Origin: a virus
DNA: 64,000 nucleotides
Direction: 5' to 3' (one strand)
Virus record (IMG/VR): IMGVR_UViG_3300045988_101454
Location: 1-64,000 of that record
Under the pieces are notes generated by a model, which did not search any database, had not been told where the DNA came from, and saw nothing but the letters and a program-made list of their open reading frames with translations. The position numbers and the translations under genes were made by a program. This document shows positions 1,497 to 44,542 of the stretch, one piece after another (the first letter of the stretch is position 1; every line of letters starts with the position of its first letter).

Positions 1497-1567
1497 GATT
1501 TTCTCAAAAATTTATGTGTTCTATAATAGGGGAGCTGCCCTGCTGCCAGGTGCAGCCCCGTGAATGA
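1497..1567 (-). repeat. intergenic hairpin-plus-leader cassette, copy a
   Basis: ATGTGTTCTATAATAGG(G)GCTGCCCTGCTGCCAGGTGCAGCCCCGTGAATGA occurs three times (1497-1567, 2386-2454, 3247-3314). It contains a GGGCTGC/GCAGCCC stem and sits between a stop codon and the next ATG. Confidence 0.75.
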
Positions 1568-1571
1568 TAGC

Positions 1572-2385
1572 TTAATAAGATAGCCACAAGTTGGAGAGGC
1601 ATTGGTACTTGCTTAGTGCGTGAGTTCTGGCGAACTCTCGAATCTCGTTATTATACTGTTGCATGTCCTTAAATATCTGTTCTGCTTTTCGTGCCAGACG
1701 CAGGTATGCCGCATACTTCCTTTTTGATGCCTTGATGTTCTCAATCGTCTCCAGACGGTCGTTTTTATACTTTTCTATAACGGCAACGGCTTTTTCTGCT
1801 TCTAAACGGTCGCCAGTATTCCACTGCCATTCGTTCGGATTCACTTCTTTCTCATTGCCAATATAGCGGCGGTAGCCATTGCCCCAACTAACATAGATAG
1901 TGATGTTAGGATAATCTATCCAGTCATTGTATCTGTAGACGTCGTAACATTTTCAGGTTAAAACAATATTCGTCGAACGAGCTATAAAAGCCAGTTTCCT
2001 TCTTCACCGCATCGTGGAAGCGTTTATTCAGCGCCTTGCCATCAAACTTTCGGCATACCTGAATAAGTCCGTCTAGGGCCTTGATTTCAAGTTTTCGGCG
2101 CTCTATCAATGCGTCCGCGTGCTTGCAATACTCCTTCACCTCGTTGGTCTTCTTGTCGGATTCATACTTTTTAGCAGCCGCCATAAAGTCGTCCTCCGTG
2201 CCGATACTGTAGGCTTTTTCCTCGCTGCCATTCTCGCGGCTAAACTGATGATGCAGGTCTATATACTTTTGTGCATCCTCCTTTGTGGCAAAGTGGCGCA
2301 CGCCATCCAGGCTTTCAGACTTCCACAGCCACACCTCGCCATCGCTGCAAATAAGATTCTGTGCTTCTACAAATATCTGTCTCAT
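1572..2385 (-). pseudogene. frameshifted paralog of 2458..3246 (split into a 153-aa and a 90-aa ORF)
   Basis: ORF 1924..2385 aligns with the N-terminal two-thirds of the 262-aa protein, and ORF 1572..1844 aligns with its C-terminus. The frames join if one base of the T4 run at 1950-1953 (A4 on the coding strand) is removed: ...FNLK|CYDVYRYNDWIDYP...NEWQWNTGDRLEAEK. Confidence 0.6.
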
Positions 2386-2454
2386 AATATTCTCAATTTT
2401 TTATATGTTCTATAATAGGGCTGCCCTGCTGCCAGGTGCAGCCCCGTGAATGAT
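2386..2454 (-). repeat. intergenic hairpin-plus-leader cassette, copy b
   Basis: Near-identical to 1497-1567 and 3247-3314. Confidence 0.75.
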
Positions 2455-2457
2455 GAA

Positions 2458-3246
2458 TTAATAACCCTTCCAGAAGTAGGAGTGATGGCTATACTGGCTT
2501 AACGCCTTCTTTTTGGCAAACTCACGGATAGTGTAGTCGTAACCTTCCATCTTTTTCATGATAGCCTCCGCTTTTCGTGCCAGTCGCAGATAGGCTGCAT
2601 AACTCTTCTTGGTAGCCTTGAGATTTTCAATAGCCGCCAAACGGTCGTTTTTGTAAAACTCTATAACAGCAACCGCTTTTTCGGCTTCCAGGCGCTCGCC
2701 CGTATTCCACTGCCACTGTAAAGCAGGATATGATGTTTTTTTCCCGTGGCTCCAGTCTGCCGAGATCATTACGGATGGTCGATACTCTACATAACAGTTA
2801 CGGCTGTAACTTTCAAGCTCGAAGCTATATTGAGAGAACGAGTTATAGAAGCCTGTCGCCTCCTTCACGGCATCATGGAAGCGTTTATTCAGCACCTTGC
2901 CATCGAATCGTCGGCATACCTGAATAAGTCCGTCCAGGGCCTTGATTTCAAGTTTTCGGCGCTCTATCAATGCGTCCGCGTGCTTGCAATACTCCTTAAC
3001 CTCGTTGGCCTTCTTGTCGGCTTCATGCTTTTTTGCAGCCGCCATAAAGTCCGCCTCCGTACCAATGCTGTAAGCTTTTTCTTCCATACCATGCTCACGG
3101 CTAAACTGGTGAAACAAATCTATATACCTCTGCGCATCCTCCTTTGTGGCGAAGATGTTTACGAACTCTATGTTATCAGAAATCCACAGCCATACGTTGC
3201 CATCGCTGCATACCAATTTTTTTGCTTCTTCAAATATCTGGTTCAT
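2458..3246 (-). CDS. hypothetical protein (intact copy of the duplicated gene)
   Basis: 262-aa ORF. Long identical DNA stretches are shared with 1924..2385, for example around 2070-2135 versus 2940-3000. Confidence 0.7.
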   Translation of the reverse strand: MNQIFEEAKKLVCSDGNVWLWISDNIEFVNIFATKEDAQRYIDLFHQFSREHGMEEKAYSIGTEADFMAAAKKHEADKKANEVKEYCKHADALIERRKLEIKALDGLIQVCRRFDGKVLNKRFHDAVKEATGFYNSFSQYSFELESYSRNCYVEYRPSVMISADWSHGKKTSYPALQWQWNTGERLEAEKAVAVIEFYKNDRLAAIENLKATKKSYAAYLRLARKAEAIMKKMEGYDYTIREFAKKKALSQYSHHSYFWKGY

Positions 3247-3314
3247 GATTCCTCTATTTTTTATGTGTTCTATAATAGGGCTGCCCTGCTGTCAGGTGCA
3301 GCCCCGTGAATGAA
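3247..3314 (-). repeat. intergenic hairpin-plus-leader cassette, copy c
   Basis: Near-identical to copies a and b, with one C-to-T change in the loop. Confidence 0.75.
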
Positions 3315-3316
3315 GA

Positions 3317-5261: not shown

Positions 5262-5389
5262 GCACCAGGACGGGCGCAAATGGCACACGGGCGTAATACT
5301 CCATCCGTGCCAGCATAGAGGCACCAGACGGGCGCAAATGGCACACGGGCGTAATACTCCATCCGTGCCAGCATGGAGACACCAGGACG
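5262..5389. repeat. tandem direct repeat, about 59 bp x 2.2
   Basis: GCACCAG(G)ACGGGCGCAAATGGCACACGGGCGTAATACTCCATCCGTGCCAGCAT(A/G)GAG occurs at 5262-5320 and 5321-5378, with a partial third copy up to 5389. The region is non-coding. Confidence 0.85.
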
Positions 5390-6418: not shown

Positions 6419-6560
6419 GTGGTGTCCTCCCTGGTGGTTCTCGTGGTGGCTGCCATCGGTGGAGTGGTTCTCGGTGGCTGGTGGTGTCCTCCCTGGTGGT
6501 TCTCGTGGTGGCTGCCATCGGTGGAGTGGTCCTCGGTGGCTGGTGGTGTCCTCCCTGGTG
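6419..6560. repeat. 62-bp tandem repeat x 2.3 in a GC-rich island
   Basis: 6419-6480 and 6481-6542 differ at one base, and a third partial copy runs 6543-6560. The unit is full of GGTGG submotifs. The period is not a multiple of 3. Confidence 0.85.
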
Positions 6561-9220: not shown

Positions 9221-9239
9221 AATTCAAAAATGCTTATTA

Positions 9240-9911
9240 CTAACTCCTAATAACTATCGCCCCTCGCTCCTCGTCGTAATCCACGCTAATTGCTTCGCAT
9301 CTCTCCGCTGCCTTGTTAGCTCTCTCCGTTGCCGTGTCCGCATCAGCCTTAGCCTTAACAGCGTTATCGGTAGCAGTATTAGCCTTAGCAGCAGCAGCGT
9401 CAGCCTTATCAGCCGAAGCGTTAGCCCTCTCCGTAGCCACATTCGCCTTCTCGATAGCCTCGTTTGCCCCCGTTATCAGGTTGCCAAGTTCTACGGTAGG
9501 AGGCAGCACCACAACAGCCGTGTCCATCTCCACGCTGTCCTCACCTTCTTGCGGTTCGAACACCGTATCACCCTGGGCATTGTTGTCAACAAGCATTATC
9601 TGTTCATACTCATTGCTTCGCCACGAGGAACCGAACAGCTTGCCCTTCACCTCAAGGGCATACGCGCCAAGAGCCATTTCCGAGCTTTGCACCCTCACCT
9701 CAAGCAGCGAGTCATCCTCCACGCCTATCGTATGCGCCATTCTTCTTCGGCGGAACGCATTAACAAGATTTACCTCCACCTCCTCGCAAGCAGGCAATGG
9801 AAACTTCTCCGCCTCTCCGCCCACAATCTTCCTTACCGGCACTCGCAACGTAAAATCGTTACCTCTTACTATCTTCTTCATAAAAGTCTGTTTTTTTAAT
9901 TCAAAACTCAA
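9240..9911 (-). CDS. tail-fibre-associated protein with Ala/Asn-rich coiled-coil segment
   Basis: 223-aa ORF; the start may instead be the ATG at 9881 (MKKIVRG). It has an ANEAIEKANVATERANASADKADAAAAKANTATDNAVKAKADADTATERANKAAE segment like the N-terminus of the DGR target. It ends GAIVIRS with a TAG-TAA tandem stop. Confidence 0.65.
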   Translation of the reverse strand: MSFELKKQTFMKKIVRGNDFTLRVPVRKIVGGEAEKFPLPACEEVEVNLVNAFRRRRMAHTIGVEDDSLLEVRVQSSEMALGAYALEVKGKLFGSSWRSNEYEQIMLVDNNAQGDTVFEPQEGEDSVEMDTAVVVLPPTVELGNLITGANEAIEKANVATERANASADKADAAAAKANTATDNAVKAKADADTATERANKAAERCEAISVDYDEERGAIVIRS

Positions 9912-9970
9912 AATTCAAAAAACTCAAAATTGAATAATTTCTAATCGGCACCGCCGACAATTCCTAATTC

Positions 9971-10246
9971 CTAACTCCTAATTACTATTGCTCCTTTCTC
10001 CTCGTCAAACCCAATGTCAACCATACTCACCTTCTGTATCTGTGCCACCCACTCGTCACGAGTACCCGTATATCCACCAGCCTTCGCCACGTCATACGCG
10101 TCCTCGCCACGGAAGTCAGCACCCTCAACACGATAGCACTCCTGCGAGCCATCCTCCTTCGGACGGATAAGCAGCAGCGTGTCACCCGTCAGCACCTTGT
10201 CAGCCTTCGGCAGACTCAGCACATCAATAGTCTCAATACTTGCCAT
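9971..10246 (-). CDS. hypothetical protein sharing a C-terminal motif with 9240..9911
   Basis: 91-aa ORF ending DEEKGAIVIRS-TAG, compared with DEERGAIVIRS-TAG in the neighbouring gene. Confidence 0.55.
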   Translation of the reverse strand: MASIETIDVLSLPKADKVLTGDTLLLIRPKEDGSQECYRVEGADFRGEDAYDVAKAGGYTGTRDEWVAQIQKVSMVDIGFDEEKGAIVIRS

Positions 10247-10750: not shown

Positions 10751-11335
10751 TCAAACGTTCATCATCAGCACATCCGGGTACCCCTCCTTATAGTCGTACC
10801 CTAACACACTCTCCACCGTACTCATTTCGCTTACAGCTTTCTTATGTGCCGCCGTGACGTTGAAACACTCCAGGGCATACATCTCCAATGCCGACAGCAG
10901 CTGTATCGCCTTGTCGCACTCCACTACCAACTTCACATCGCCAAGCCACAGCGTAGTAGTCGGCTGTCCCATCGCCTTTGCGATTGTTGTAGAGTTCATC
11001 AGACCTACACGTGTCGCCTTGTCGAGCCACACACGCTGTCCGTTGAGGATAAAGCCATTAACGGCAGATGAAGTGTCGTGCTTATCAATCTCTGCAAGCA
11101 CCATCTTCTGTGCCGCAGCAGTAAGCGCAGCCTCCGAAGTCATGCCGCCCGTCTCCAGGCGCACACCGTCATACACCCACACCTTGCGCACCACCGCTTC
11201 GGTAGTCGCCAATCCGTTCTCGCCAGGCATACCACCCGAAATCTCCGTCTCCTCCTTGCCGTTGATAAGCAACAGTACAACACCATCGCCAACAGTCAGT
11301 CTTGGCTGTGCCTCGTCAAAATAATACTTCTCCAT
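10751..11335 (-). CDS. hypothetical protein downstream of the RT
   Basis: 194-aa ORF. There is a weak impression of a tail-fibre-accessory type protein, and it does not look like Avd. Confidence 0.55.
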   Translation of the reverse strand: MEKYYFDEAQPRLTVGDGVVLLLINGKEETEISGGMPGENGLATTEAVVRKVWVYDGVRLETGGMTSEAALTAAAQKMVLAEIDKHDTSSAVNGFILNGQRVWLDKATRVGLMNSTTIAKAMGQPTTTLWLGDVKLVVECDKAIQLLSALEMYALECFNVTAAHKKAVSEMSTVESVLGYDYKEGYPDVLMMNV

Positions 11336-11388
11336 AATCTTTAAATTTTAAGAATTTATCCATTTTTACTCTTTTACCTTTTTACTTT

Positions 11389-12768
11389 TCAAATGTACTT
11401 CATCTGATTCGTTGAGCCCTCAAAGATATATCCGCACTCGTCCACAATCCTCACGTCCTCCAACGGCAGCAAGTTCTTCTTGCCATACTCCTGCTCCGCC
11501 GTCACCATCCAAGCCACGATACCCATCATGCCGCCGTGTACCTCCCTTGCCACAGTCTTGCCTGTCAGTTCTCCGTCGTCGGTCACTTCCGGCATACCTA
11601 TCAGCATCTTTATCCAGTTAGGCTCACCCGTCTTCTCGCTCTTGCGTATCTCGTAGTCAAAGACAGTAAACACCTGTCCGCTACGTGCCAGTTCCAGTGG
11701 CTTGATATTCGGAGCGTCCATCTTGCGGTCTATGCGTATCTTCTTTGTCAGTTCTCGTAGCTTCATATCTTTCTCAATTTTTACCATCTCTCCGAATCCG
11801 TCCGTATGGCGCATTAGTCCAAAGTAACTGCCCCAGGAATTGTCGTTGTCGCACATCCTCGCTCTCAGCAACGTATCTTTGCGTATAAGGCAAAATCCTT
11901 TGTTCGGGTCTGTCACGCTCTTGTCGGCGTTGCGTATAACTCTGTAGCCGCAGAAGTCAAGCCCTCGCTTGTCGTTGAGACTCGTCACCCTCGTGTCGCC
12001 ACGCTTAGCCCTTATGTCAAGTTCATACCACCAATATTGTCTTATCCGCCACTTCATCTGCTGTGCTTCTGCTCTCGTCCTACAAGCCACCATGCAGTTA
12101 TCGGCATAGCACAGCCGCCATTCAGTGTTTTGGCATAGCCATTCGTGAAATCTCAGCATCAGTATATGGTGAGCAAGCGGACTCGTCGGTGTGCCTACAG
12201 GCAGTTGTCCGTCAACAAAGCACAGCTCTACGGCAAAGTCTATCAGCCACTTGTCGCCAATAAGATATTTCAGTTCCTTACGCAGCATGCTCGGCTTCAC
12301 GTGCATATAGCATTGTCGTTGGTCGGCTGTAACTATCCAGTCCATCTCCCGCAGGTCGTAGAATAGATGTTTCACTCTCGGCAGCACATAGTTGCTTTTC
12401 AGTTCCTTGTGCTTCGCCGATGGTGTTATGCCACACCCTTCCTTGCAGTTGAGCGACACCAATGGGTCACGTCTACGATATATCGGCTCCAGTTTGTTCT
12501 TCAGCAAGTGTTCATACACTAAAGTTCTAAACGAAGGAGCGTCGATGTGCCTCACCTTCTTGTTGTTGTTCACCTTGGTCAGCTTACGATATTCGATGTC
12601 CTTACGCCAACTTCCATCTTTGAGATGTTGTTTAATACTTGCGCATAGCCCGTCTACATCCTTCAATGCCTCCTTCACCTCGGGTCGTTTCTTTCTGCCT
12701 TTTGCGGCACTCCACACAGCCTTTTCGTAATCGCCGGCAGTGAATGGTATGTAATTGGGTCTATGCAC
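11389..12768 (-). CDS. reverse transcriptase of a diversity-generating retroelement (atypical)
   Basis: RT motifs are visible in order: RHIDAPSFRTLVYEHLL, SLNCKEGCG, TADQRQCYMHV, LPVGTPTSPLAHH, LCYADNCMV and GLDFCGYRV. The gene lies directly 3' of a TR/VR pair. It apparently uses a GTG start and encodes 459 aa. Confidence 0.85.
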   Translation of the reverse strand: MHRPNYIPFTAGDYEKAVWSAAKGRKKRPEVKEALKDVDGLCASIKQHLKDGSWRKDIEYRKLTKVNNNKKVRHIDAPSFRTLVYEHLLKNKLEPIYRRRDPLVSLNCKEGCGITPSAKHKELKSNYVLPRVKHLFYDLREMDWIVTADQRQCYMHVKPSMLRKELKYLIGDKWLIDFAVELCFVDGQLPVGTPTSPLAHHILMLRFHEWLCQNTEWRLCYADNCMVACRTRAEAQQMKWRIRQYWWYELDIRAKRGDTRVTSLNDKRGLDFCGYRVIRNADKSVTDPNKGFCLIRKDTLLRARMCDNDNSWGSYFGLMRHTDGFGEMVKIEKDMKLRELTKKIRIDRKMDAPNIKPLELARSGQVFTVFDYEIRKSEKTGEPNWIKMLIGMPEVTDDGELTGKTVAREVHGGMMGIVAWMVTAEQEYGKKNLLPLEDVRIVDECGYIFEGSTNQMKYI

Positions 12769-12951
12769 GTTTGTTATATATGTTTTTATGCGGATTTCTC
12801 CGCTGTTGATATTCAGTGTCGGGCTAAAAAGTTGACGGAACTGTCTGTCCGTCAGAATGTCTCTCGGTCACGTCCGCTGCATCACGTACAGCCATCGTGC
12901 TACGCTCACATCCCTTGTCTTTGATAATCTCTGCTTCTCCTGAGCGAGAGT

Positions 12952-13115
12952 GGTGTTCCCGTGTTCTTAGTTCTGCATCTTTTATGATGCCCGACGTTGG
13001 GCAGAACCGCCATTATTCACGTTCGAGTTATTGACCGCATTGTTCGCATTGAGGTAGCGAGCTGAACAATTCGCATTATTCGCATTGCCACGAAAACGCA
13101 AGGCTCGGGAACACC
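12952..13115 (-). promoter_or_regulatory. 10-bp perfect inverted repeat bracketing the TR
   Basis: GGTGTTCCCG at 12952-12961 is the reverse complement of CGGGAACACC at 13106-13115. The latter starts at the first base after the TR/VR homology ends. Confidence 0.6.
12998..13105 (-). repeat. DGR template repeat (TR)
   Basis: 108 bp matching 13348-13455 at an offset of +350. All 12 differences are T on the plus strand, which is A on the coding strand. In the target frame the TR reads ALRFRGNANNANCSARYLNANNAVNNSNVNNGGSAQ. Confidence 0.9.
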
Positions 13116-13274
13116 AACCTCTTTAGCCATCATCTATATGGATGGCATCACCTCTCATGCAGGCTTCAGAGGCTTCGGCCCTCATGCCGAGCTTGTCCTG
13201 GTTTTGAGGAAATAGATTGTCTTTCTTCATCTTTCCTAATTCTTAACTTTTAACTCCTAACGTAACTCCAAAAT

Positions 13275-13298
13275 GGGCCCCGGTTGCACCGGGTGCCC
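13275..13298 (-). promoter_or_regulatory. GC-rich hairpin downstream of the VR (DGR target-recognition hairpin and/or terminator)
   Basis: GGGCC-CCGG-TTGCA-CCGG-GTGCCC forms a 9-bp stem with a 1-nt bulge. On the minus strand it is followed by ATTTTGG. It lies about 30 nt after the target stop codon. Confidence 0.5.
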
Positions 13299-13328
13299 AC
13301 GTTGCACGAAGTTGCACTTGGCTGCGCC

Positions 13329-15743
13329 CTATTGCACGATGCGACACTGGGCAGAACCGCCACTAGACACGCCCGAGTTATTGACCGCATGGTCCGCATC
13401 GAGGTAGCGAGCTGAACAATACGCATTAAGCGCATCGCCACGAAAACGCAAGGCTATGCGGGCACGCTGGTCAATGGTAGACGACCAGTAAGGGTATATG
13501 TCACCATAGTAGCACTGCCAGTTGGCGAGGTTGCCTCCTATCTCCACAGGCCACGGAGTAAAGCCTTTTCGGTTCTTTATGTAGCTGTTTGTCAACATAG
13601 GCGGACCGAAGGTACCAATCTTGCTGTATGCCTTTTCAAAGCCGAAGGTGCCGAGGTTGTTTCTTGTCGAGTCTGTCTCGTATGCCCACTTCTTCTGCTC
13701 AGGCTCAAGGTATATGTCGGAGAAGTTTACCTTCGCACGGTCAACAACGCTCGATGCGTTCGACTTGCAGGTGCCTACAATCTCACAGCCGCCGCCCCAA
13801 TAGGCCAAAATGTCTCCAACGATGTTCATACCTTGAATAAGGCTCATTCTCAGACTTAGCTCAAGGTCGTAGGTAGCCAATGTCTCGGCATCCTTATAGC
13901 CCTTGCAAGTGCCTGTCTTTTTACGGTATACTTTGCAGTTCATCAAGCCGTCTGCCAAGCCCTTCACACCTGTTATGTTCTTGTAGTGGTACATCACGCC
14001 GTACGCCTCGTATTCTGTGTCCTCGGCTATGCCAAACTCCGCTGCCCACGATGCCGCCATCTGACTCTCCATGCACTGTTCCTTCGGGCGGTAAAGGTTT
14101 ATGAAGTACGAGAAGTTCTGCTTCTCCATCTTGGCGTTGCAACCAAATGGCGTTGTCTGGTTAAACGGACGGTAAACCCAATCCTCGGTGCCTTGCTCCC
14201 TTGTCCTCACACCGCCATTGTTCAACCACGTGTCCTCATTGCTACAGCTGTCGTTAGACGATATGCCAGAGCCAAACAATCGGTTGTCGTGCAAATACTT
14301 TGTACCGTACAGCAGCTCCATACACATGATAAAGGTGTTGATAATATGATAACCGCCCTCTGCAAACGGCAGCGGCATTTTCGGGTCTGTATTATTGGCA
14401 CGGGCGTACTTCATGGTTGATATTTGGCTCATATCAGATACGCGAGGATATGTTCTGCCGTCGTTCACGTATATAGCGCACATCTCCTCTCCGTAGGCGC
14501 TTGCTCCGTTCGTGGTGTTTGGGTCTTTTACCGCATACGCAAAGAAGAAGTTGCGTGTCTTGTTGCCAACGGTCGTCACTGGGCATGGCGCCAGGGCTGT
14601 GCCAAGCAACGGAAACTTGCCAGTGTTGATGCCGTCATACTTCATCGGACGCTTGAACACTCCCGACAACACCTTGCCGCTCTCGCCAGTCTGACGGTCT
14701 ACGGGATAGATAGTGTCGTAGCGACCAATCAGCACCGAATACTTGGTATCTGTAGTCTCCCAAGGCAGCAACTGACGCACCTTGTTACCCTCTCCGTCGT
14801 ACAAGTCCACCAAGCCGAGCGAGTTGTACACCTCGGCAGCGTCATACGGATGCGCACCTGTCTTGTCCGTTACAACCACGCCGTTCTTCAATGTCAGCAT
14901 CTGTGTATGCTCCGCATCGGTATAGAGTTGTATATCACAAGCGGTACGCATCTCCTCAGTAATGCCCACGGTAGGAGCAAACGCACCCGTCACAAAGCGG
15001 AAGTGATTGTTGTCCATCAACTGACCTACAGGGTGTGTACCCTCGCCCGTGTTGTCGGTATGGTCGATAAGGAACGGATGCCAGTCGCCCAACACCTCCT
15101 TGTTGCCCTTGCCGTTCTTAAACTTAGGGCCGCCCGTCACCTCGTCGTTCTCGGCAACGTAGTAGTCCTTAACGTTCTCCTTCAGCTCCGCAATCTCCGC
15201 CGTGTTCTGCTCCACCTGCTTCGCCATCTCTGTTGCCGCAGCCTGCGACACCAGCTCCAACGATTTCTCGGCTCCAGTTCTGTCCGTCACCTTCAGAATA
15301 TTGTCGTCACCAAGCACAGCGTTCACCTTCTCGGCGGCAGCGGTAGCGTCGTTAGCCGCAGTCGTTGCAGCCTGTGCCGCCGATGTAGCGGCGTTGGCAG
15401 CCTTCGTAGCCTGGTTTGCCTCGCCAACAGCCGCCACCGTCGCCGTCTTGGCATCCATTGCCGCTTGAGCCGCTTTGTTGGCGGTAGTCGCAGCAGCATT
15501 AGCAGCCACCGTCGCAGCAGCCGCCAGGCTCTCCGCCTCGCTAAGGTCGATGCACTTGTTCCACCACGCAGTGTCCGTAAGCTGATGTCCCACGTTCTTG
15601 CCCGTCGCAGCGTCCACCTTAACGCTCACCCACACTGCCTTGCCGTCGCTAATGTAGTCAAGCCTCTCATACTCCCTCTCTGCCGACCATTCCGACCCTG
15701 CCGGAGTCAGCACAACCTTAATTACTTGCTCGTTGTTTGCCAT
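13329..15743 (-). CDS. DGR target protein; putative receptor-binding tail fibre with a variable C-terminal domain
   Basis: 804-aa ORF with an Ala/Thr/Asn-rich coiled-coil N-terminal region typical of fibres. The VR is at its extreme C-terminus. The stop codon is TAG at 13329-13331. Confidence 0.85.
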   Translation of the reverse strand: MANNEQVIKVVLTPAGSEWSAEREYERLDYISDGKAVWVSVKVDAATGKNVGHQLTDTAWWNKCIDLSEAESLAAAATVAANAAATTANKAAQAAMDAKTATVAAVGEANQATKAANAATSAAQAATTAANDATAAAEKVNAVLGDDNILKVTDRTGAEKSLELVSQAAATEMAKQVEQNTAEIAELKENVKDYYVAENDEVTGGPKFKNGKGNKEVLGDWHPFLIDHTDNTGEGTHPVGQLMDNNHFRFVTGAFAPTVGITEEMRTACDIQLYTDAEHTQMLTLKNGVVVTDKTGAHPYDAAEVYNSLGLVDLYDGEGNKVRQLLPWETTDTKYSVLIGRYDTIYPVDRQTGESGKVLSGVFKRPMKYDGINTGKFPLLGTALAPCPVTTVGNKTRNFFFAYAVKDPNTTNGASAYGEEMCAIYVNDGRTYPRVSDMSQISTMKYARANNTDPKMPLPFAEGGYHIINTFIMCMELLYGTKYLHDNRLFGSGISSNDSCSNEDTWLNNGGVRTREQGTEDWVYRPFNQTTPFGCNAKMEKQNFSYFINLYRPKEQCMESQMAASWAAEFGIAEDTEYEAYGVMYHYKNITGVKGLADGLMNCKVYRKKTGTCKGYKDAETLATYDLELSLRMSLIQGMNIVGDILAYWGGGCEIVGTCKSNASSVVDRAKVNFSDIYLEPEQKKWAYETDSTRNNLGTFGFEKAYSKIGTFGPPMLTNSYIKNRKGFTPWPVEIGGNLANWQCYYGDIYPYWSSTIDQRARIALRFRGDALNAYCSARYLDADHAVNNSGVSSGGSAQCRIVQ
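13348..13455 (-). repeat. DGR variable repeat (VR), 3' end of the target gene
   Basis: Encodes ALRFRGDALNAYCSARYLDADHAVNNSGVSSGGSAQ, which is residues -41 to -6 from the C-terminus of the 804-aa ORF. Confidence 0.9.
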
Positions 15744-15845
15744 ATCATTAAGTTTTTAAAAATTTATTCCCTAAAAAGCTATAGGATTTTTCACTTTTCA
15801 CTTTTCACTTTTTCACTTTCTACTTTTTACCTTTTTACCTTTTCC

Positions 15846-18800
15846 TTAATCAACAAGACTATGCCGCAAGCATCGCCACAACTCTCCGTCGAAAAACAGT
15901 TCAGAGTCTTGTACGAATTGGTCAAGGATACACGACCCATCGGTTTTATATACCACACCAATATTCTTTACGCCATAAGTGATATTTTTCCCGTTACCAT
16001 TTATTGTCACGGCAGATGCCCCTTTTATTATCTTATAGTATTGCCCAATCTCTGGGTCAGACGGCAGCGTCAGCGTCACACCAGCACGGCACACCACTAC
16101 ACACTCCATCTTGCTCAATGCTCTGTTGGCGGTAGCCACCGTCAGCATAGGGCGCATACCAGCAATGTCGCCCTTCGAGATAAACAGAGCATGGTTGCCG
16201 TTAGGCAAACTACTGCCTGCTATGTTTTGCAGCTCCCTGTGCTCAAGGTTCATCTTGCCCGATACACTCAGCATCATGCCGAGATTTACCTGCTGATAGT
16301 CGTAGGCGTCATTCCAGTTTTTTACCAAGTTCAAAAGCACACCACCTTGCTCATTCATTCCTCCAACACCGCTAAAGATGCCGTTGCCCATAACAAGGTC
16401 AAAGTTGTTGTCTCTACTTCTGAACACGATGTCAGAGCTGTTCAGGCACATATAGTCGGTCTCGCCAAGCGTGCCGTGCTTAAGGTAACTGGCGTCAATC
16501 TCAAAGCAGCCTATATAACCCTTTACCGCCTTCATCGCACCCGTGCTCGTAACATAGAACGGAGCATCCTTGGCAGTAGACGTACCCACAAACAGCGGAG
16601 CATACTCGCTGCCCACCTTGCAGGCATCCATCTCGTAGTTGCCAAAGTAGCCCACTTTATTCGTGCCGTCCTTGTTCACAGCCCATAGATGCTTCACGTT
16701 TATTAGGTCTGCGTTTAGTCCGTCCTCGTCAAACACCGCAACCTTCTTTCCCGTCCTCGTCCTGAACTTCGTCCTTTCCGCCGTCAAGGTCATCTCCTTG
16801 CTGTTGATGTCGATGCCAACTTCAAGCAAGGAAGCCAACATGCTTCTGTCTTCCACATAGTCGCTGCTCTCGGCAGTCCATTCCGTAGCCGTGGCACCCA
16901 CCTCAAGCTTTATTTGCGATACTAACAGCCTGCTGCCGGTAAACGTGCGCAACACAACAGCCTGTGGGAGCGAGTCGCCTATCACACGCCAATGAACGTA
17001 GTACATTTGCCATTTGCCCGAAACACTCATAAGTGCCTCGCCGTCTGGAGTTGAGGTGTTTATCACGTGTCCGCATATCTCCACCGCCACGTCAGGTGTA
17101 CCGTCGTTGTGCAAATAAGCGGCTATATGCGCATAGGCATCCGCATCGCTGTCACCCTTAGCCATAAACGACAGCATATAGTCCTGTCCCTGCTTTATCA
17201 CACCCTTGCCCGAGAGGTCCCAGGTCACGGTGTCAATCCTGCCGACAGCACCGCTTCTTATGTCCGTACACAGCGTAGCATAGCTGCCGTATCTGTCCGC
17301 ATCGCCCTCGCTCAAGAGCTTGGTAAAACTGCTGTTTACCGTCAGCCCGTCGCCGCTTGTCAAAGTGTCCGCCCTCGCAAGCAAGTTGCCGCCACGATAG
17401 TTGCAGTCCTCCTCCGACAGCGACCATCCTAAAAACTCGCTGCCCTCTGTCAGCATAGGCAAGGCAATGCGTGCGGTGTGCGCACCCGAGTAGATAAAGA
17501 CACAATCAGCATACACCGTCCTTGCGTCAAGCTCAAAGGTCTCGGTCATAAGGTTCCACCCCGTACTCATTTTCTTCGCCACCTCGCAGTATATGCTAAG
17601 ATTGTTGCCTATGTCGTTCATCTGTGCGTCCTTCTGCACGATATACACGCCAAAGTCACGATAAGCCACATCCCCGTCACACGCCAACATTGCGCTTACC
17701 GTATGTGTACGGTTTCTGCCAACCTTAACACGCAAGAAGTCAACACCTCTGTTCTTTCCCGTCGCTCCTTCTATCACCACAGCGTTAATGCCGTCATACT
17801 GATATACGGTCGTAATCCAAGGCTCATACGTGTCGTTGCCAGTCCACGATGCCTCCTTGCGCTTAAATGCAGTACCCGTAAGCAGGTTGAATCTGCCCTC
17901 GCTGCGCTGCCCAACCTTCAAGCTAAACTCCTTCGACGTCTGCTTGAAGGTGGTAAGGTCTGACTTCACTTCGCCAACAAGATTATTCGTCTCCTCTACC
18001 TTGCTCGTGACGCCATCCACGCTCACCTTAATGTCCGTAAATTTTTTCGACAACGTCATGCTGTTCCCGATGTCACCCGTGAACAGCATAAATTTGTCCG
18101 AGTTCACATACGTCATGGCAGGGCTCGCCAAGAACGTCAGGTCTCTCCACATATACACCTTGCTCAAGTCCTGTCTGTCGTTCACAATATCGTATCTGCC
18201 AATGCCATAATACATCGCAATCGCAGGAGCCGTGCCCGAAGCGTCGTCCTCCGTAGACGTCGACAACTTAATAGCGTTGCCCCTCGACAACCACTTCACC
18301 TGGTCGCCCACTTGCACAATCACGTCACCAGCCATAGGCGCACCAGGCTCGCCGCCACCCTTGACAGGCTCATAGCCAGCATAGTTGCGTCTGCTTACAG
18401 AGTTTTTCTTGTCGTCCATCTTTATGCCGTCCTGTTCAAGTACCGCCCCGAAGCTCGTCAGCCCACTCGCAGCAGCCACAGCCACGGCAGCACCGCCAAA
18501 GGTCAGCACCTTGCCCGTACCGTCGGCAAGCAGCTTCAAGCCATAGCTCGGAACAACTTCGTCCGTGCCGTTGAACCGCTCCACGTTGCTCAACACCACA
18601 TAGTCGTACAGCCTTCCGTCCTCAAGCGTCTCTTGACCCACAGCCACCACCAATCGCCAGTAGTAGCGGTTGGCAAGCTCGCCCTCTGTCTGCGCCTTAA
18701 CGTTAAAGGTCTGGCACATCGCCATCATGCCCGGTCGCCACCAGTTCATCGTCCTCGTCGTGCCGTCGTCGGCGGCAGCATAACACTTGTACGCAATCAC

Positions 18801-25804: not shown

Positions 25805-26839
25805 CTAATACAGCAGTGGCGATACGAATATCTTGCTGTCTGGCTGATTGTTCTCGTAGCCTTTGCTTGTTGAGTCGGTGGTGTTGGTTGAGGGCTTGTC
25901 TGGGGTGGTGTTGGCAACGTCCGCTGCCTTGCGCATTTCCATGAGCCGGAGCACCGAGGTGCGTAGGGCGATGGCCTCGTTGTGGGCAGCTGCTCGGCGT
26001 GCCTTGTCAATAGTGAGTATTGTTGTGCGCTCTTCGAGGTGGGCCACCATCAAGCGACGTACCTTGCGAAGGAGTGGCTTGTCGTTAGGATCGTAGGTGT
26101 GGAGAAGACGCTGCACCGTGTCTTCGCCAATAGCCTCGCTGATGTATTCGTCTTGAATGAAGTGGAGGTCGGGCAGAAGACGGATGAACTTCTCACGGCT
26201 CTCGTAGATGTCGAGGTAGTGCTGAAGGTCGGCACATGTGGCAATGAGGAGGTCGTGGTGGAGATAGTAGTACTGGCTCTCCTGCCACAATAGGCTTATC
26301 TCCTCAATGGCCTTGTGCTGCTCATCCTTTGGCTCGGTGGTCGGCGGCTCGGTGGAGTCGGCATCGGCGATGGCTGCGGGGGTAGCCATCTTGCGTGCCC
26401 AACCTTCGAGCATTACGAGCATCTGATTGAGCGACACCATAGCCTCGCGCTTATAGCCCTGCACTCCCTTGTCGAGTAGGTCTTTTGATGCCGTGCCGTA
26501 GTCGTCGCTTGAAGCCACGTTGATGCCGGTGCCGTTGATAGAGAGAGCCTGTGCGTAGACGAAGCGCGACATGGCATCGTATGTCACCATGCGCTGTGCC
26601 ATAAGCAGGAGTTGCATCCAAGGTTGCTGAGTGTGCTCACCGTTGCTGACTGCCATGTAGAAGTCGTCGGGCGAAACGGTCTGATAATACTCGCACAACC
26701 GATTGTAGAGCGAGTCGCCCAACTTGTCGCGCAGAAAATCTTTCTCGCTGTTGTCGAGTATGCCTTGAAGAGAACTTATCTCGTCAATGGCGTTGCTGGG
26801 GATGTGGAGCCGAAGCTCCTTGGTGGTTGATAAAATCAT
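25805..26839 (-). CDS. hypothetical late-operon protein
   Basis: 344-aa ORF preceded by an (AATTCAAA)n low-complexity leader. Confidence 0.6.
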   Translation of the reverse strand: MILSTTKELRLHIPSNAIDEISSLQGILDNSEKDFLRDKLGDSLYNRLCEYYQTVSPDDFYMAVSNGEHTQQPWMQLLLMAQRMVTYDAMSRFVYAQALSINGTGINVASSDDYGTASKDLLDKGVQGYKREAMVSLNQMLVMLEGWARKMATPAAIADADSTEPPTTEPKDEQHKAIEEISLLWQESQYYYLHHDLLIATCADLQHYLDIYESREKFIRLLPDLHFIQDEYISEAIGEDTVQRLLHTYDPNDKPLLRKVRRLMVAHLEERTTILTIDKARRAAAHNEAIALRTSVLRLMEMRKAADVANTTPDKPSTNTTDSTSKGYENNQPDSKIFVSPLLY

Positions 26840-26929
26840 ACGCTATGCGAATTTTGAATTTTGAGTTTTGAATTTTGAATTGTCGGCAAGCCGATTAGGA
26901 ATTACTCAATTTTGAATTATCCATGTCTT

Positions 26930-27287: not shown

Positions 27288-28058
27288 TCAGAACATCTTA
27301 AGCTGCGCTTGCTCCAACTTGATGCGCTTACAAGCCTTGTCGTAATACTCCTTGTTGAGTTCAAATCCGATGAAGTTGCGCTTCTCTTTTATACAAGCAA
27401 TGGCGGTGGTGCCGCTGCCCATACAGTTGTCTAAGATGGTGTCGCCCTCGTTGGAATAGGTGCGAATGAGGTACTGAATAAGAGCTACGGGCTTTTGAGT
27501 AGGGTGCATATCAAGATTCTTTTCTTTGTCGAAGAACAGTACAGATATGGGATATTTCTCTGTTGTTACTTCTTTTGAGTTGGGCTCAATATTATAATTG
27601 CCATAACAGACATTACCCTTTGCTTTTCCGTATTTATGCCCTCGTGAGTGAGAGGGGAAACCTTGTCTCATCTGCGGATTGTATGTAGGTAGCGCACGAT
27701 AGAACACAGCAATATCCTCATGGCTCCGCATAGGCATGCGCTTCGCATTGAGAAATCCTGTTGGTCGGTTTTTTTGCCAAATTAGATTATATCGCCATGT
27801 GTCAGGTTCTGCCATCATTAGCTGTGCCGTAAACATTCCTTGACCGAAGAGAATAATAGGAGCGTTAGTTTTTGCTATTCGCCAGTATTCCTTGAATAGA
27901 GGCTCCATCGGGATAATGTTATCCCATCGTGCCTTTTCATTGCCTTTGTTCAGAACTTCATACGGCAAATCGCACACAATGCAATCCACGCTCCCGTTTG
28001 GAATCCTTTTCATTCCTTCGAGGCAGTCTTCATTATATATCTTATTCAGTTCAATCAT
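27288..28058 (-). CDS. DNA methyltransferase, N6-adenine/N4-cytosine (beta-class, DPPY-type)
   Basis: DCIVCDLPYEV is a DPPY-like catalytic motif at the N-terminus. DNCMGSGTTAIACIKEKRNFIGFELNKEYY is the SAM-binding FxGxG-type motif at the C-terminus. Confidence 0.85.
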   Translation of the reverse strand: MIELNKIYNEDCLEGMKRIPNGSVDCIVCDLPYEVLNKGNEKARWDNIIPMEPLFKEYWRIAKTNAPIILFGQGMFTAQLMMAEPDTWRYNLIWQKNRPTGFLNAKRMPMRSHEDIAVFYRALPTYNPQMRQGFPSHSRGHKYGKAKGNVCYGNYNIEPNSKEVTTEKYPISVLFFDKEKNLDMHPTQKPVALIQYLIRTYSNEGDTILDNCMGSGTTAIACIKEKRNFIGFELNKEYYDKACKRIKLEQAQLKMF

Positions 28059-33454: not shown

Positions 33455-34630
33455 TTACTTAGCCTTAAAATTATATATCGGCTTGATGCGCTTCACGATG
33501 TTCACAGTGTCGCCTATCAGTTCTTCAATCTCCTCTGCCGACTTGTACGCCATTGGTGCTTCGTCGATGGTGGACTCGCATACCGATGTGGAGTAGATGT
33601 CGTGCATCTGTTGGCGGTATTCTTCCATGCTGAGCTGCTTCTTTGCTGCCGAGCGCGACATCAGTCTGCCTGCACCGTGCGGAGCCGACTGAAGCCAGTC
33701 GTCGTTGCCCTTGCCAGTACACAGCAGCGAACCGTCGCGCATGTTCAGAGGGATAATCAGAGGCTCGCCCTTCTTTGCGCTCACAGCTCCCTTGCGGATA
33801 ATGCCGAAGGTGTCGATGTAGTTGTGCATGGTGGTGAACACACGACCTGTAGACTTTAGTTCAAGACCTTTGATTATGGTTTGCGCCATAAGAAAACGGT
33901 TCAAGTCGGCATAATGCTGACACAAGCGCATGGCATCATAGTAATCGCCAAGCGTGGGACCGCTAATGTAGGCCATGTCTTTAGAAACGGGTTTCAACCG
34001 GCGCAGCGCATCGTTTATCTCGCTCTGTCTGCCCTGAGCTTTCAGTTCGGAAATGATACGTCCACGTTCCTCACTGTTGTTGCATTGTCTTGATGCCAAC
34101 TGCTGAAAATGTCGGCATATCTTTACGCCTAAATTGCGGCTACCCGAATGTACTACAAGATACTTGCGTCCTTCGTCGTCCACGTCCACCTCAATAAAGT
34201 GGTTGCCACCGCCAAGGGTGCCGAGCGAACGCAGTACATAGTCGAGGTCAAAATATTGCTTCCACGGAGGCAAAAAACACCATATTTCATTGTGCATAAG
34301 GGAAACCATCTCTGACGACAAACGCTTCTCATGCACATTGAATCCGCTTGGAATGTTGTCGTTGATGATACGGTCGAGAATCTCCATATCAATGTTGGCA
34401 AAGCCTAAATCCCACACGAGCATACCACAGCCGATGTCTACGCCCATGGTGTTGGGCACCACTTTGCCGCGGGTCTCAATCACGGTGCCTACGGTGCATC
34501 CCTTTCCGGCATGGCAATCGGGCATAATGCGAATCTTACAGTTGCGGTAAGCCTCGCTCTCTGCCATCTGCCTTACTTGCTCCTGGGCTTCAGGTTCAAT
34601 GGTCTTTGCAAAAATCTTTAAGTCACTCAT
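33455..34630 (-). CDS. rtcB: RtcB-family RNA 3'-phosphate ligase
   Basis: Characteristic RtcB metal and GTP ligand motifs are present: MPDCHAGKGCTVG, GVDIGCGM, GGGNHFIEV, VHSGSRNLG and APHGAGR. Confidence 0.9.
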   Translation of the reverse strand: MSDLKIFAKTIEPEAQEQVRQMAESEAYRNCKIRIMPDCHAGKGCTVGTVIETRGKVVPNTMGVDIGCGMLVWDLGFANIDMEILDRIINDNIPSGFNVHEKRLSSEMVSLMHNEIWCFLPPWKQYFDLDYVLRSLGTLGGGNHFIEVDVDDEGRKYLVVHSGSRNLGVKICRHFQQLASRQCNNSEERGRIISELKAQGRQSEINDALRRLKPVSKDMAYISGPTLGDYYDAMRLCQHYADLNRFLMAQTIIKGLELKSTGRVFTTMHNYIDTFGIIRKGAVSAKKGEPLIIPLNMRDGSLLCTGKGNDDWLQSAPHGAGRLMSRSAAKKQLSMEEYRQQMHDIYSTSVCESTIDEAPMAYKSAEEIEELIGDTVNIVKRIKPIYNFKAK

Positions 34631-42352: not shown

Positions 42353-42787
42353 TTATTCCTCCTTAATACCAAATGGTGTTCCGTCAGCAAATGTATATTG
42401 CTTAAACGTTTCATTATAATTATAAAATGTCACTTCCTCGCATACTTCTATCATTGAAATTCTACTATCCGTAATTTTTAGAATGTGGTAATTTTCTTTT
42501 TCTTCTTTAAGTTTTAACCAACCGAACGGTTGGTGCTTCAGCATTTCCTGCCAACATTCTTCTGCGTTCTTAAACGAACGATACTTGGGCTCGGGCTTGA
42601 TACGGTAGTTGTACAAATCAGGTCTAAAAAGATGTTCTTCATCCACATCTACCCATTTATTGTTGAAATTAGGCTCTCCTGGATGTTCAATCTTAAAGCT
42701 AAGGTCTACGTCGTAACACTGGATAGTTTTGCCATTTACATACGCCTGCATAACATCCACCAACTGCTTTATTTTTTCTTTTCTCAT
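42353..42787 (-). CDS. hypothetical protein
   Basis: 144-aa ORF with the leader TTAACGAAAATATAGAGAACAATG. Confidence 0.6.
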   Translation of the reverse strand: MRKEKIKQLVDVMQAYVNGKTIQCYDVDLSFKIEHPGEPNFNNKWVDVDEEHLFRPDLYNYRIKPEPKYRSFKNAEECWQEMLKHQPFGWLKLKEEKENYHILKITDSRISMIEVCEEVTFYNYNETFKQYTFADGTPFGIKEE

Positions 42788-42821
42788 TGTTCTCTATATT
42801 TTCGTTAATACTCACATCGTT

Positions 42822-43085
42822 TTATCTCTTTCTTCGCTTCGCCTTGCGTCGTTCTTGCAGGTTATGCTGCACAAGTTGCGTAATGGTGAACGATGGCGAC
42901 CCGTCGGGCAAAATGAATCGGATTATCCTCTTCGCCTTGCCTTCAATGAACTTGTCAATACACTCCAATACTTCCTGCAAAATCTGCTGCTGCGATTTAT
43001 TCTTGTCGGTCTACTGCTCATACAACTGGCGGATGTATGCCGGATTGACGGTAACGATGTATTGTCTTTCTTTATGTATCTTCAT
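42822..43085 (-). CDS. hypothetical protein interrupted by an in-frame TAG
   Basis: The conserved leader and ATG at 43085 give MKIHKERQYIVTVNPAYIRQLYEQ. TAG (43011-43013) follows, then 62 more in-frame codons (TDKNKSQQQILQEVLECIDKFIEGKAKRIIRFILPDGSPSFTITQLVQHNLQERRKAKRRKR*). These end just before the next gene's leader. Confidence 0.4.
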
Positions 43086-43120
43086 TGTTCTCTGTATTTT
43101 CGTTAATACGTTATCGCTTG

Positions 43121-43504
43121 CTATGATTTAAGAATATTGAAGCAATCCTGTAATTCCTCATCACATTCGGGTGGCCAAAGTGTGCGTACCTTCATGCCGT
43201 TGTTGTCGATAAGAGGTTGGGCTAACGGCAGGATTGCGTGCGGCTCTTTGTGCCACTCTATAACTGTTCCGTCGTTGTATATTGTAGGATTGTAATCAGA
43301 TCCATACTTTAGCAAAGAGATAAGTTTTTGCTGCATACAATACTTCAAATCAGACCATGACTTGCTACGTCCCAAATAGCCATTCACGACATACCCTCCG
43401 GCACAATACTGATAGGAGACACCATCGAGCCGATGAGAGTAGAGCGTGATGCCGGCTTGGGCGCAATAATACCTTAATGTCACCATTGTTGCATATTTAC
43501 CCAT
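43121..43504 (-). CDS. hypothetical protein
   Basis: 127-aa ORF with the same conserved leader. Confidence 0.6.
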   Translation of the reverse strand: MGKYATMVTLRYYCAQAGITLYSHRLDGVSYQYCAGGYVVNGYLGRSKSWSDLKYCMQQKLISLLKYGSDYNPTIYNDGTVIEWHKEPHAILPLAQPLIDNNGMKVRTLWPPECDEELQDCFNILKS

Positions 43505-43528
43505 GATTCTCTGTATTTTCGTTAATAC

Positions 43529-43885
43529 TTACGTCGTTTCACTTAAATCCTTACAAATCAAATCAGATAGAAGATTGTCCTTTTCCTCCACCTCCTTCAA
43601 CGACTGTTCTATCATTGCCCTGCATACAGACGGGTCGAGTGCCGGAAGTTTATGGTCTATTGCATTTGCGGTTTTTGGTGGAGCGAATGGATCCTTTATT
43701 AGTGAAAAGCAGACAACATCCGCACGACTCATTATGTTGGCAATGGCATCCTCGATGGAGTCGAATTTGCCCATAAAGACTTGTCCAGGGGAGAGTTCCA
43801 CTAAAAAACATTTCTCTGTGGTGCGGTCCTTGCCGAGCATTACGATGCAGTCGGGACGATTGCGACGATTTACTTTTATATACAT
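43529..43885 (-). CDS. hypothetical protein
   Basis: 118-aa ORF. Confidence 0.6.
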   Translation of the reverse strand: MYIKVNRRNRPDCIVMLGKDRTTEKCFLVELSPGQVFMGKFDSIEDAIANIMSRADVVCFSLIKDPFAPPKTANAIDHKLPALDPSVCRAMIEQSLKEVEEKDNLLSDLICKDLSETT

Positions 43886-44494: not shown

Positions 44495-44542
44495 ACTCTA
44501 TATTTTCGTTAATAAGCCATTGGATTTTTAGCTTTTCCCTTT

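Follow-up and report, generated by a model that had tools for sequence, protein, structure and literature searches.

In the diversity-generating retroelement (DGR) of Bordetella phage BPP-1, ordered mtd-avd-TR-brt, a variable repeat (VR) differs from a template repeat (TR) specifically at adenines. Its reverse transcriptase (RT), bRT, requires the accessory protein Avd, a basic four-helix bundle. Avd is absent from 26% of curated DGRs; cassettes without an accessory gene ('Architecture A') make up 29% of them, and about 20% of DGR RTs run on past the thumb by as much as ~150 aa (Wu et al. 2018, PMC5758913). An RT family with the motif GxxxSP was described in 2024 for the epsilon crAss-like phage crAssE-Sib (Viruses 2024, 16:513, PMC11054128). 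The motif was unexpected, and the program myDGR misses the family unless that motif is first edited (PMC11054128), a point repeated in PMC12386605. In many related epsilon crAss-like phages the RT genes are fragmented or deleted (PMC11054128). Here we describe a cassette of this kind in a stretch of viral DNA of 64,000 nucleotides, positions 1 to 64,000 of the IMG/VR record IMGVR_UViG_3300045988_101454 (hereafter the window, whose coordinates are used throughout). We consider it highly probable that this locus is a functional or very recently functional DGR with the Avd-less layout target, VR, TR, RT. Judged by its sequence, it belongs to the published GxxxSP RT family, in a different phage lineage. 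Four further aspects of the locus are described: the YADN motif in the active site of the RT, the apparent independence from Avd together with a C-terminal domain private to the family, an RNA map backed by covariation, and the modular character of the cassette.

TR and VR differ only at template adenines

The cassette is ordered 804-aa target, VR, structured RNA with the TR, and 459-aa RT. The 108 nt of the TR (12998..13105, minus strand) and of the VR (13348..13455, minus strand), offset by +350 and separated by 242 nt, differ at 12 positions (TR coordinates 13013, 13016, 13017, 13022, 13023, 13041, 13044, 13050, 13071, 13079, 13080 and 13086). At all 12 the TR has a T on the plus strand, that is an A on the coding minus strand, which is replaced in the VR by G (6 cases), C (3) or T (3). 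Adenines occupy 28 of the 108 nt, and a confinement of all 12 mismatches to adenines has a hypergeometric probability of 1.1e-8. Direct comparison reproduced exactly the coordinates, the offset and the mismatch positions given in an earlier note on this DNA, and our recount agreed with its figure of 12 changed adenines out of 28 and no difference at any other base. The note had counted a thirteenth adenine difference at 12997. At this position the TR/VR homology has already ended, and the neighbouring 12996 is a mismatch that involves no template adenine; the difference should not be counted as adenine mutagenesis. A second VR for the same TR was looked for within the 64-kb window by a pattern search in which the TR adenines were replaced by N; no copy besides the TR and the VR was found (chance expectation 0).

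The VR codes residues ~764-799 of the 804-aa open reading frame (ORF). Its location at the C-terminus of this ORF and the two translations quoted in the earlier note were correct according to the ORF translation. Read in the same frame, the TR translates as ALRFRGNANNANCSARYLNANNAVNNSNVNNGGSA. Twenty-four of its 28 adenines lie in 12 AAY codons; the adenine sites comprise these 12 codons plus one TAC, and no stop codon can be reached from them. Substitution of the adenines gives a repertoire of 15^12 x 4 = 5.2e14 peptides, none with a stop.

TR-to-VR flow in related genomes

Homologues of the RT ORF numbered 366 in the protein collection, and 218 loci were found in IMG/VR. The GxxxSP family is common in gut metagenomes, and one of its RT clusters holds 1,353 member sequences. 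The close relatives of the window locus have RTs 83-96% identical to its own and lie on contigs of up to ~102 kb, one in a record named gut metagenome. In every close relative a VR of ~108 nt ends the upstream gene, a TR lies 345-381 nt downstream and the RT gene comes next. When 16 close relatives were pooled, mismatches between TR and VR were found at 207 of 426 TR adenines and at 5 of 1302 other positions. The same bias was seen across 72 loci of the RT family, where 862 of 1799 adenines and 29 of 5757 other positions were changed, with a substitution spectrum of 395 A>T, 339 A>C and 128 A>G.

Four genomes share an identical TR, which is thus kept between genomes whose VRs differ. Taken in pairs, their VRs differ at 12-15 adenine sites and at 0-1 other sites. 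The earlier note had proposed comparing the VR across related phages, and this comparison confined the variation to positions templated by TR adenines. A second comparison made use of TR columns without adenine. Twenty-six such columns vary among genomes; the VR carried the base of its own TR in 412 of 416 cells, and the base of a differing TR in only 19 of 2008. The VR thus matches its own TR at variable non-adenine columns, which indicates that sequence keeps flowing from TR to VR. The DNA flanking the four identical-TR loci is 83-99% identical and not clonal, and activity is therefore shown on an evolutionary time scale and not in the present population. A megablast search for near-identical DNA, with 11300-15800 as query against 50,697 phage records, gave no match.

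Hypervariability was also apparent at the protein level. The target has 903 homologues. Among the best 120 of these (76-94% identical), column entropy at the C-terminus is near zero outside the codons templated by AAY, and reaches ~3 bits in those codons, with 11-15 residue types.

The reverse transcriptase

The RT is encoded on the minus strand at 11389..12768 (459 aa, GTG start), beginning 229 nt past the end of the TR. Its ORF matched Pfam RVT_1 (E 6.9e-9, 36.1 bits for a cutoff of 29.6) and the PHROG reverse-transcriptase family phrog_1423, and is 44.6% identical to the RT of crAssE-Sib. Motif reading placed the motif A Asp at residue 149, the motif VGTPTSP at residues 191-197 (12198-12178, minus strand) and motif C, YADN, at residues 221-224 (12108-12097, minus strand). 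Domain 4 reads LPVGTPTSP, and the first position of its motif is V (I in most relatives), as in DGR RTs. The best solved-structure match of a profile built from 31 members was the 328-aa chain 8ub7_A (E 6.7e-11, residues 7-322), which, from its length and its motifs IPIGSLTSQ and YMDD, we take to be the Bordetella bRT. At the positions of bRT R74 and I181, two residues that promote adenine mutagenesis (PMC7826257), the RT retains R72, which is invariant, and V191. In the same paper bRT(Q187P)-Avd is called 'unaltered'.

Outside its own family, the relatives of the RT among the 50,697 phage records were RT genes only. Three of these were inspected, from Pseudomonas phage Bise, Butyrivibrio phage Arawn and crAssphage cr52_1, and all three carry both [I/V/L]GxxxSQ and YxDD. 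Adenine-only repeat pairs are present at Bise and Arawn, and Bise has a gene for a four-helix bundle beside its RT. Membership of the DGR class is suggested here by the motifs, the near-tied profile scores given below and the canonical motifs of the nearest phage RTs, and not by a rooted tree.

About 135 residues past the RT thumb have no counterpart in 8ub7_A. This C-terminal domain (aa 322-459; 11392..11805, minus strand) is private to the GxxxSP RT family and acidic, with an isoelectric point (pI) of 5.3. AlphaFold2 gave a confident model of it, with a mean predicted local distance difference test (pLDDT) score of 81.5. A Foldseek search of this model against the PDB returned nothing below E 0.05; there were weak matches resembling the OB-fold and single-stranded DNA-binding proteins, with template-modelling scores of at most 0.33. 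A search of 1.84 billion representative proteins with the domain produced 101 matches only; in those of full RT length the domain sits at the C-terminus, and the remaining ones are short proteins, possibly fragments. The proposal that the domain is a built-in substitute for Avd was unsupported, the domain being acidic (pI 5.3) and Avd basic. The RT ORF is intact and conserved over its full length, this domain included.

The YADN motif

YADN was found in 18 of the 18 members of the window clade, which consists of the window and 17 close relatives (L001-L017). It was also found in three further loci (L047, L048 and L072) of the family of 85 sequences, in which 63 have YADD and one has FADD. A neighbour-joining tree of the RT alignment recovered the window clade as monophyletic and had YADN on three separate branches besides. 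In bRT, D216 is one of three catalytic aspartates, and the Mg2+ modelled by cryo-EM adjoins D138 and D215.

The footprint of mutagenesis is alike in YADN and YADD loci: 50% and 47% of adenines are changed, respectively, against 0.26% and 0.59% of other bases, and the substitution spectra are similar. The measurement in which each VR followed its own TR (412 of 416 cells) was made wholly within the YADN clade. TRs have diverged within this clade and VRs follow their own TR, so TR-to-VR copying must have gone on after Asp had given way to Asn. This is most simply read as activity of the YADN enzymes themselves, although a helper RT outside the window may supply it. We found no report of YADN or YxDN in a reverse transcriptase in the literature. 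A broader proposal, that here a lineage of DGR RTs mutagenises adenines with a single motif C Asp, needs no Avd and carries an acidic C-terminal domain of its own whose fold is unrecognised, seems to us about evenly poised between true and false.

Structure of the DGR RNA

An RNA alignment of 17 loci, reaching from a point 130 nt ahead of the TR as far as the RT start, has 491 columns and 90% identity per column. Its consensus structure was computed with RNAalifold, and base pairs lying outside the TR core were counted in each locus. The 85 pairs of the consensus are formed in 98.5% of cases, and 16 of them show compensatory changes. Shuffled alignments gave 5.9±1.6 such pairs, none of 500 reaching 16, and controls in which the structure was slid along the alignment gave 2-4.

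In the order of transcription, the RNA (minus strand throughout) begins with a domain of five helices (13126..13209), of which helices 1, 2, 4 and 5 show compensatory changes. It is followed by the upstream strand GAGGTTGGTGTTCCCG (RNA GAGGUUGGUGUUCCCG; 13106..13121) and the TR. The spacer RNA (12825..12997), mapped by RNAalifold and pair counts, opens with two small hairpins (13001-12976) that begin inside the TR. It continues with CAGAACT (CAGAACU; 12975-12969), which pairs with GGTTCTG (GGUUCUG; 13008-13002) of the TR, and with the spacer strand CGGGAACACCACTCTC (RNA CGGGAACACCACUCUC; 12961-12946), which forms 15 of 16 possible pairs with the upstream strand. A short stem-loop (12945-12933), an A-rich single strand (12932-12915), a long interrupted stem-loop (12914-12854) and a terminator-like hairpin (12853-12834) with a run of T (12833-12825) complete the spacer.

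Four of the 15 pairs of the upstream:spacer duplex show compensatory changes, and the TR:spacer helix has 7 pairs. An upstream:spacer duplex of 11-21 pairs occurs at the same place in every clade of the RT family, built from unrelated sequences. It closes the TR into a loop and is the analogue of the Bordetella avd:Sp 'cPRT stop' duplex. The combination of an upstream:downstream duplex with a TR:spacer duplex is of a type reported in 207 of 278 DGRs (Handa et al., bioRxiv 10.1101/2023.10.23.563531). The 9-11-bp Avd-binding stem-loop that would be expected right after the TR is absent, only hairpins of 3 and 4 bp being present there, which fits the absence of Avd. The stem of the terminator-like hairpin covaries and lies ~60 nt ahead of the RT start codon. 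Transcripts of the DGR RNA may thus stop short of the RT gene, in which case expression of the RT would need an explanation of its own.

A 35-codon ORF (13228-13121, minus strand; MKKDNLFPQNQDKLGMRAEASEACMRGDAIHIDDG) lies between the VR and the TR and overlaps the five-helix domain. It is open in 17 of 17 relatives and has been called as a gene in two public assemblies. We considered whether it encodes a miniature accessory protein and rejected this: its variable columns are distributed 14, 15 and 15 over the three codon positions, without third-position bias. The protein reading is weakened further by non-conservative changes that preserve the covarying RNA helices. The ORF is probably part of the RNA and not translated. 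A scan with Rfam detected no known RNA family in the window, intron and retron RNAs included. A scan for sigma-70 promoters, which is ill-suited to the promoters of Bacteroidota, also found nothing.

Target gene and target site

The target gene (13329..15743, minus strand) encodes a tail-fibre-like protein of 804 aa, according to the ORF list and its translation. Its N-terminal ~200 aa are Ala-rich and helical. Its C-terminal ~600 aa are homologous to the receptor-binding protein of crAssE-Sib (WOZ57270.1; 43% identity over 603 aligned positions, E 2e-150), which has been modelled as a C-type lectin near TaqVP (5VF4) (PMC11054128). The PHROG match is weak (phrog_13173, 'tail fiber protein', E 9e-4). 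The earlier note took the target for the receptor-binding fibre. As to function this is a reasonable inference from the weak tail-fibre match, the tail-like neighbouring genes, the lysozyme gene close by and the crAssE-Sib homology. A phmmer search of the PDB with the C-terminal 423 aa gave no match, and a profile of 19 diverse target C-termini, run against the PDB and Pfam, gave noise only.

The 3' boundary of the VR (13329..13361, minus strand) was examined through the flanks of 4 loci and an alignment of 16 loci, and resembles an initiation of mutagenic homing (IMH) site. VR and TR have in common a G+C-rich block, GGCGGTTCTGCCCA (13361-13348 in the VR). It is followed by GTGTCGCATCGTGCAATAG, specific to the VR, and at the same place in the TR by ACGTCGGGCATCATAAAAG. 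The flanks beyond the block, GTGTCGCATCG in the VR and ACGTCGGGCATC in the TR, are kept in relatives. The two 3' flanks are related without being identical, like IMH and IMH*. In the GenBank record of crAssE-Sib (OR575929, csAssE-Sib/crAssE-Sib) the equivalent features are annotated as IMH and IMH*: VR, IMH, TR and IMH* stand between a 'putative tail fiber protein' and a 'retron-type reverse transcriptase'.

Two hairpins with T-GCA-A loops lie downstream of the VR (13274..13319, minus strand), as shown by DNA folding and by covariation in 16 loci. The first is AAGT-GCA-ACTT at 13319-13309; the second, G+C-rich, is at 13299-13274 and is followed by ATTTTGG. The stems covary between loci (CCCGGT/ACCGGG, CGCGGT/ACCGCG, CCCAGT/ACTGGG, CACGGT/ACCGTG) while the loop is invariant. 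In BPP-1 a hairpin or cruciform is needed at the target site, and hairpins of this type are reported at 4-34 bp from the VR with a GRNA tetraloop consensus (PMC3240598). By analogy the hairpins in the window are candidates for such an element; their loops are GCA triloops and not GRNA tetraloops, and they lie further from the VR than 4-34 bp. Alternatively, they may simply be the terminator of the target gene.

A 754-aa ORF (14424-16688, plus strand, TTG start) runs antisense to the target gene and to the neighbouring gene for a 1344-aa protein. It is almost certainly no gene, its match to crAssE-Sib appearing only as the shadow of the target gene.

Weighing of alternative explanations

The reading of the locus as a DGR, already put forward in the earlier note, is supported by VR variation between genomes that is confined to adenine-templated positions and by the RT gene that follows the TR. 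The note's word 'complete' holds in the sense of Architecture A; no Avd was found in the window. Several observations weigh against this reading. No four-helix-bundle family, Avd (PF05635) included, was among the families listed for 128 window ORFs of 85-230 aa (25 of 29 families listed, the remaining 4 being weaker than E 0.006). The RT lacks both canonical motifs: domain 4 ends in SP and not SQ, so that [I/V/L]GxxxSQ is absent, and YADN stands for YxDD, the missing Asp corresponding to the catalytic D216 of bRT. Profile scores were near-tied, with 44.9 bits for 8ub7_A and 42.7 (E 3e-10) for group II intron RTs, and the best NCBIfam match was a group II intron RT/maturase model, far below its cutoff. 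The compared genomes are not clonal, and activity in the present population is not what they show. As for the target, an AlphaFold2 model of its 804 aa (18 sequences, at least 77% identical) reached a mean pLDDT of only 28.7, and the protein has no Pfam or PDB match by sequence.

Three other accounts of the locus were weighed. If the RTs of the clade were catalytically dead, the TR/VR pattern would be a fossil dating from an ancestor whose enzyme still had YADD. In favour of this, the second catalytic Asp of motif C is missing from all 18 members of the clade, which have YADN, the window yielded no Avd, and RT genes are known to decay in related epsilon crAss-like phages (PMC11054128). We nevertheless judge a fossil unlikely, given that the YADN clade is monophyletic, that its TRs have diverged at 26 non-adenine columns with the VR equal to its own TR in 412 of 416 cells, that YADN and YADD loci bear the same footprint, and that the RT ORF is intact and conserved. 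Alternatively, the RT might be that of a different retroelement or of a defence system, such as a group II intron, retron or defence-associated RT, and merely stand beside the repeats. RTs of group II introns and retroviruses typically have GxxxSP (PMC7826257); in NCBIfam the RT matched best a group II intron RT/maturase model and the retron St85 model, each far short of its cutoff; and GenBank labels a homologue 'retron-type'. Against this, the Rfam scan revealed neither intron nor retron RNA, and the Q of QGxxxSP is V or I here, as in DGR RTs. Furthermore, TR, spacer and RT are always contiguous, their RNA covaries, and in some homologues the called ORF extends across the TR to include the RT. 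Of the nearest phage RTs outside the family, those inspected have canonical DGR motifs, two of them with adenine-only repeat pairs. This makes an unrelated RT very unlikely.

The window contains 12 families of short direct repeats, and TR and VR could in principle be one more case, a 108-bp duplication or gene-conversion tract near an unrelated RT. The probability of the pattern by chance is 1.1e-8 in the window alone, and the same adenine-only pattern stands beside the same RT family in 72 loci. Gene conversion would copy adenines too, and other repeats in these loci show unbiased mismatches. An ordinary duplication is effectively already refuted and is the least probable of the three accounts.

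Proposed mechanism

For a DGR of the GxxxSP family, the following sequence of events can be proposed. An RNA of ~400 nt would be transcribed from ~13230 to 12825 on the minus strand. It would fold so that the TR is looped out between two spacer duplexes, one formed with the 3' end of the TR (GGUUCUG/CAGAACU) and the other with the 16 nt upstream of the TR. This RNA may prime its own reverse transcription in cis. By analogy the cDNA would start near 13009; this fits with mutated adenines reaching no further than 13013 and with the adenine at 12998 being unchanged. The cDNA would then replace the VR at the 3' end of the tail-fibre-like gene, and this homing step could be guided by the shared G+C-rich IMH-like end and by the hairpins downstream of the VR. 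Since 12 AAY codons hold 24 of the 28 TR adenines, as many as 5e14 different peptides could be produced, all free of stops.

Host phage and probable transfer of the cassette

The window was compared with 150 kb of crAssE-Sib, a 151-kb phage (L084/L088, OR575929). Of 166 ORFs of at least 80 aa, only three genes matched: those for the RT and the target, the latter accompanied by its antisense shadow ORFs, and one for a DUF4376 fibre-like protein, whose match was weak. Other products encoded in the window are a tape-measure-like protein, a prohead protease and RtcB, and a lysozyme gene lies near the target. The protease resembles those of Flavobacterium, Cellulophaga and Porphyromonas phages, and the 1344-aa protein has stretches resembling Bacteroides phage tail proteins. 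As only the cassette is shared, its RT, its RNA and the last ~600 aa of its target seem to have passed as a unit between Bacteroidota phages that are otherwise unrelated.

Among the other genes of the window are an RtcB-type RNA ligase (PHROG E 1.5e-128; 33455-34630, minus strand), a DNA methyltransferase (27288-28058, minus strand) and small ORFs with the Pfam domains MazG, guanylate kinase, GNAT and YopX. ARAGORN detected no tRNA genes in the window. A/T-rich repeats, reading AAGTGAAAAGTGAAAAGTGAAAAA or TTAGGAGTTA on the minus strand, lie directly upstream of minus-strand genes, the target gene included. They were found at 11339-11387, 15762-15810, 26826-26874 and 44500-44548, at 9228-9275 and 9959-10006, and at 42779-43539. 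Similar motifs stand ahead of the DGR RNA in the window and in relatives. A role of these repeats as promoters or regulatory sites of the phage is possible. At 1506-3316 there are three units in tandem, each ~860-886 nt long and 71-86% identical to one another. They carry paralogous minus-strand ORFs, each unit being followed by a conserved 65-nt element with a G+C-rich hairpin, and the whole looks like a small tandem gene family. Two tandem duplications lie within ORFs, one of 58 nt x 2 (97% identity; 5269-5384) and one of 62 nt x 2 (98%; 6419-6542). Neither length is divisible by 3, and both could be recent duplications or assembly artefacts.

Implications

The GxxxSP family is missed by myDGR (PMC11054128), the standard detector and one of the programs recommended in the earlier note, and yet is common in the gut, and hypervariable receptor-binding proteins of abundant gut phages are therefore under-annotated. 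The presence of the cassette in a ~100-kb phage with a tape-measure-like protein and in 150-kb epsilon crAss-like phages points to a portable host-range module. If the evenly poised proposal made above for the YADN lineage were true, the second catalytic Asp and Avd would both be dispensable for mutagenic reverse transcription, and the target tip, the RNA and the RT would constitute a self-sufficient unit moving between unrelated gut phages. The YADN clade is a natural experiment on the minimal polymerase active site for adenine mutagenesis. The covarying RNA provides a map for rebuilding a compact Avd-free system with a single protein and a single RNA, the kind of part that is wanted for DGR-based directed evolution.

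Comparison with known systems

The nearest system is that of crAssE-Sib. The two RTs are 44.6% identical over 99% of the query, the C-terminal domain included, and share LP[IV]GTPTSP. The targets are 43% identical over ~600 aa, the order is target-VR, TR, RT in both, no Avd is annotated there either, and an upstream:spacer duplex, of 16 pairs, is present. The window phage is otherwise unrelated and is not epsilon crAss-like. Its spacer measures ~230 nt, as against ~110 nt in crAssE-Sib, its clade has YADN where crAssE-Sib has YADD, and the N-terminal ~200 aa of its target, presumed to be the docking part, are unlike.

Several features are common to the cassette and BPP-1: TR and VR mismatch specifically at adenines; the VR, with AAY codons, lies at the C-terminus of a tail-fibre-type gene; both repeats end 3' in the same G+C-rich sequence, beyond which IMH and IMH* diverge; and there is a hairpin downstream of the VR. 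The elements of the Bordetella DGR RNA (Handa et al.) recur in the same order, namely a TR:Sp (Sp, spacer) duplex, an upstream:Sp duplex, a stem-loop, a single strand and a long stem-loop, and the RT profile aligns over the whole of 8ub7_A, taken as bRT. Unlike BPP-1, the window has neither Avd nor the 9-11-bp Avd-binding stem-loop, and a structured RNA domain of ~85 nt upstream of the TR replaces the avd coding sequence. Its RT has SP for SQ, YADN for YMDD and ~135 extra C-terminal residues, and its hairpins carry GCA triloops instead of GRNA tetraloops. With the Architecture A of Wu et al. the locus has in common a target/TR/RT cassette without an accessory gene and a C-terminal extension of the RT. 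The RTs of that survey were defined by the canonical motif set; the C-terminal domain found here occurs only in the GxxxSP family.

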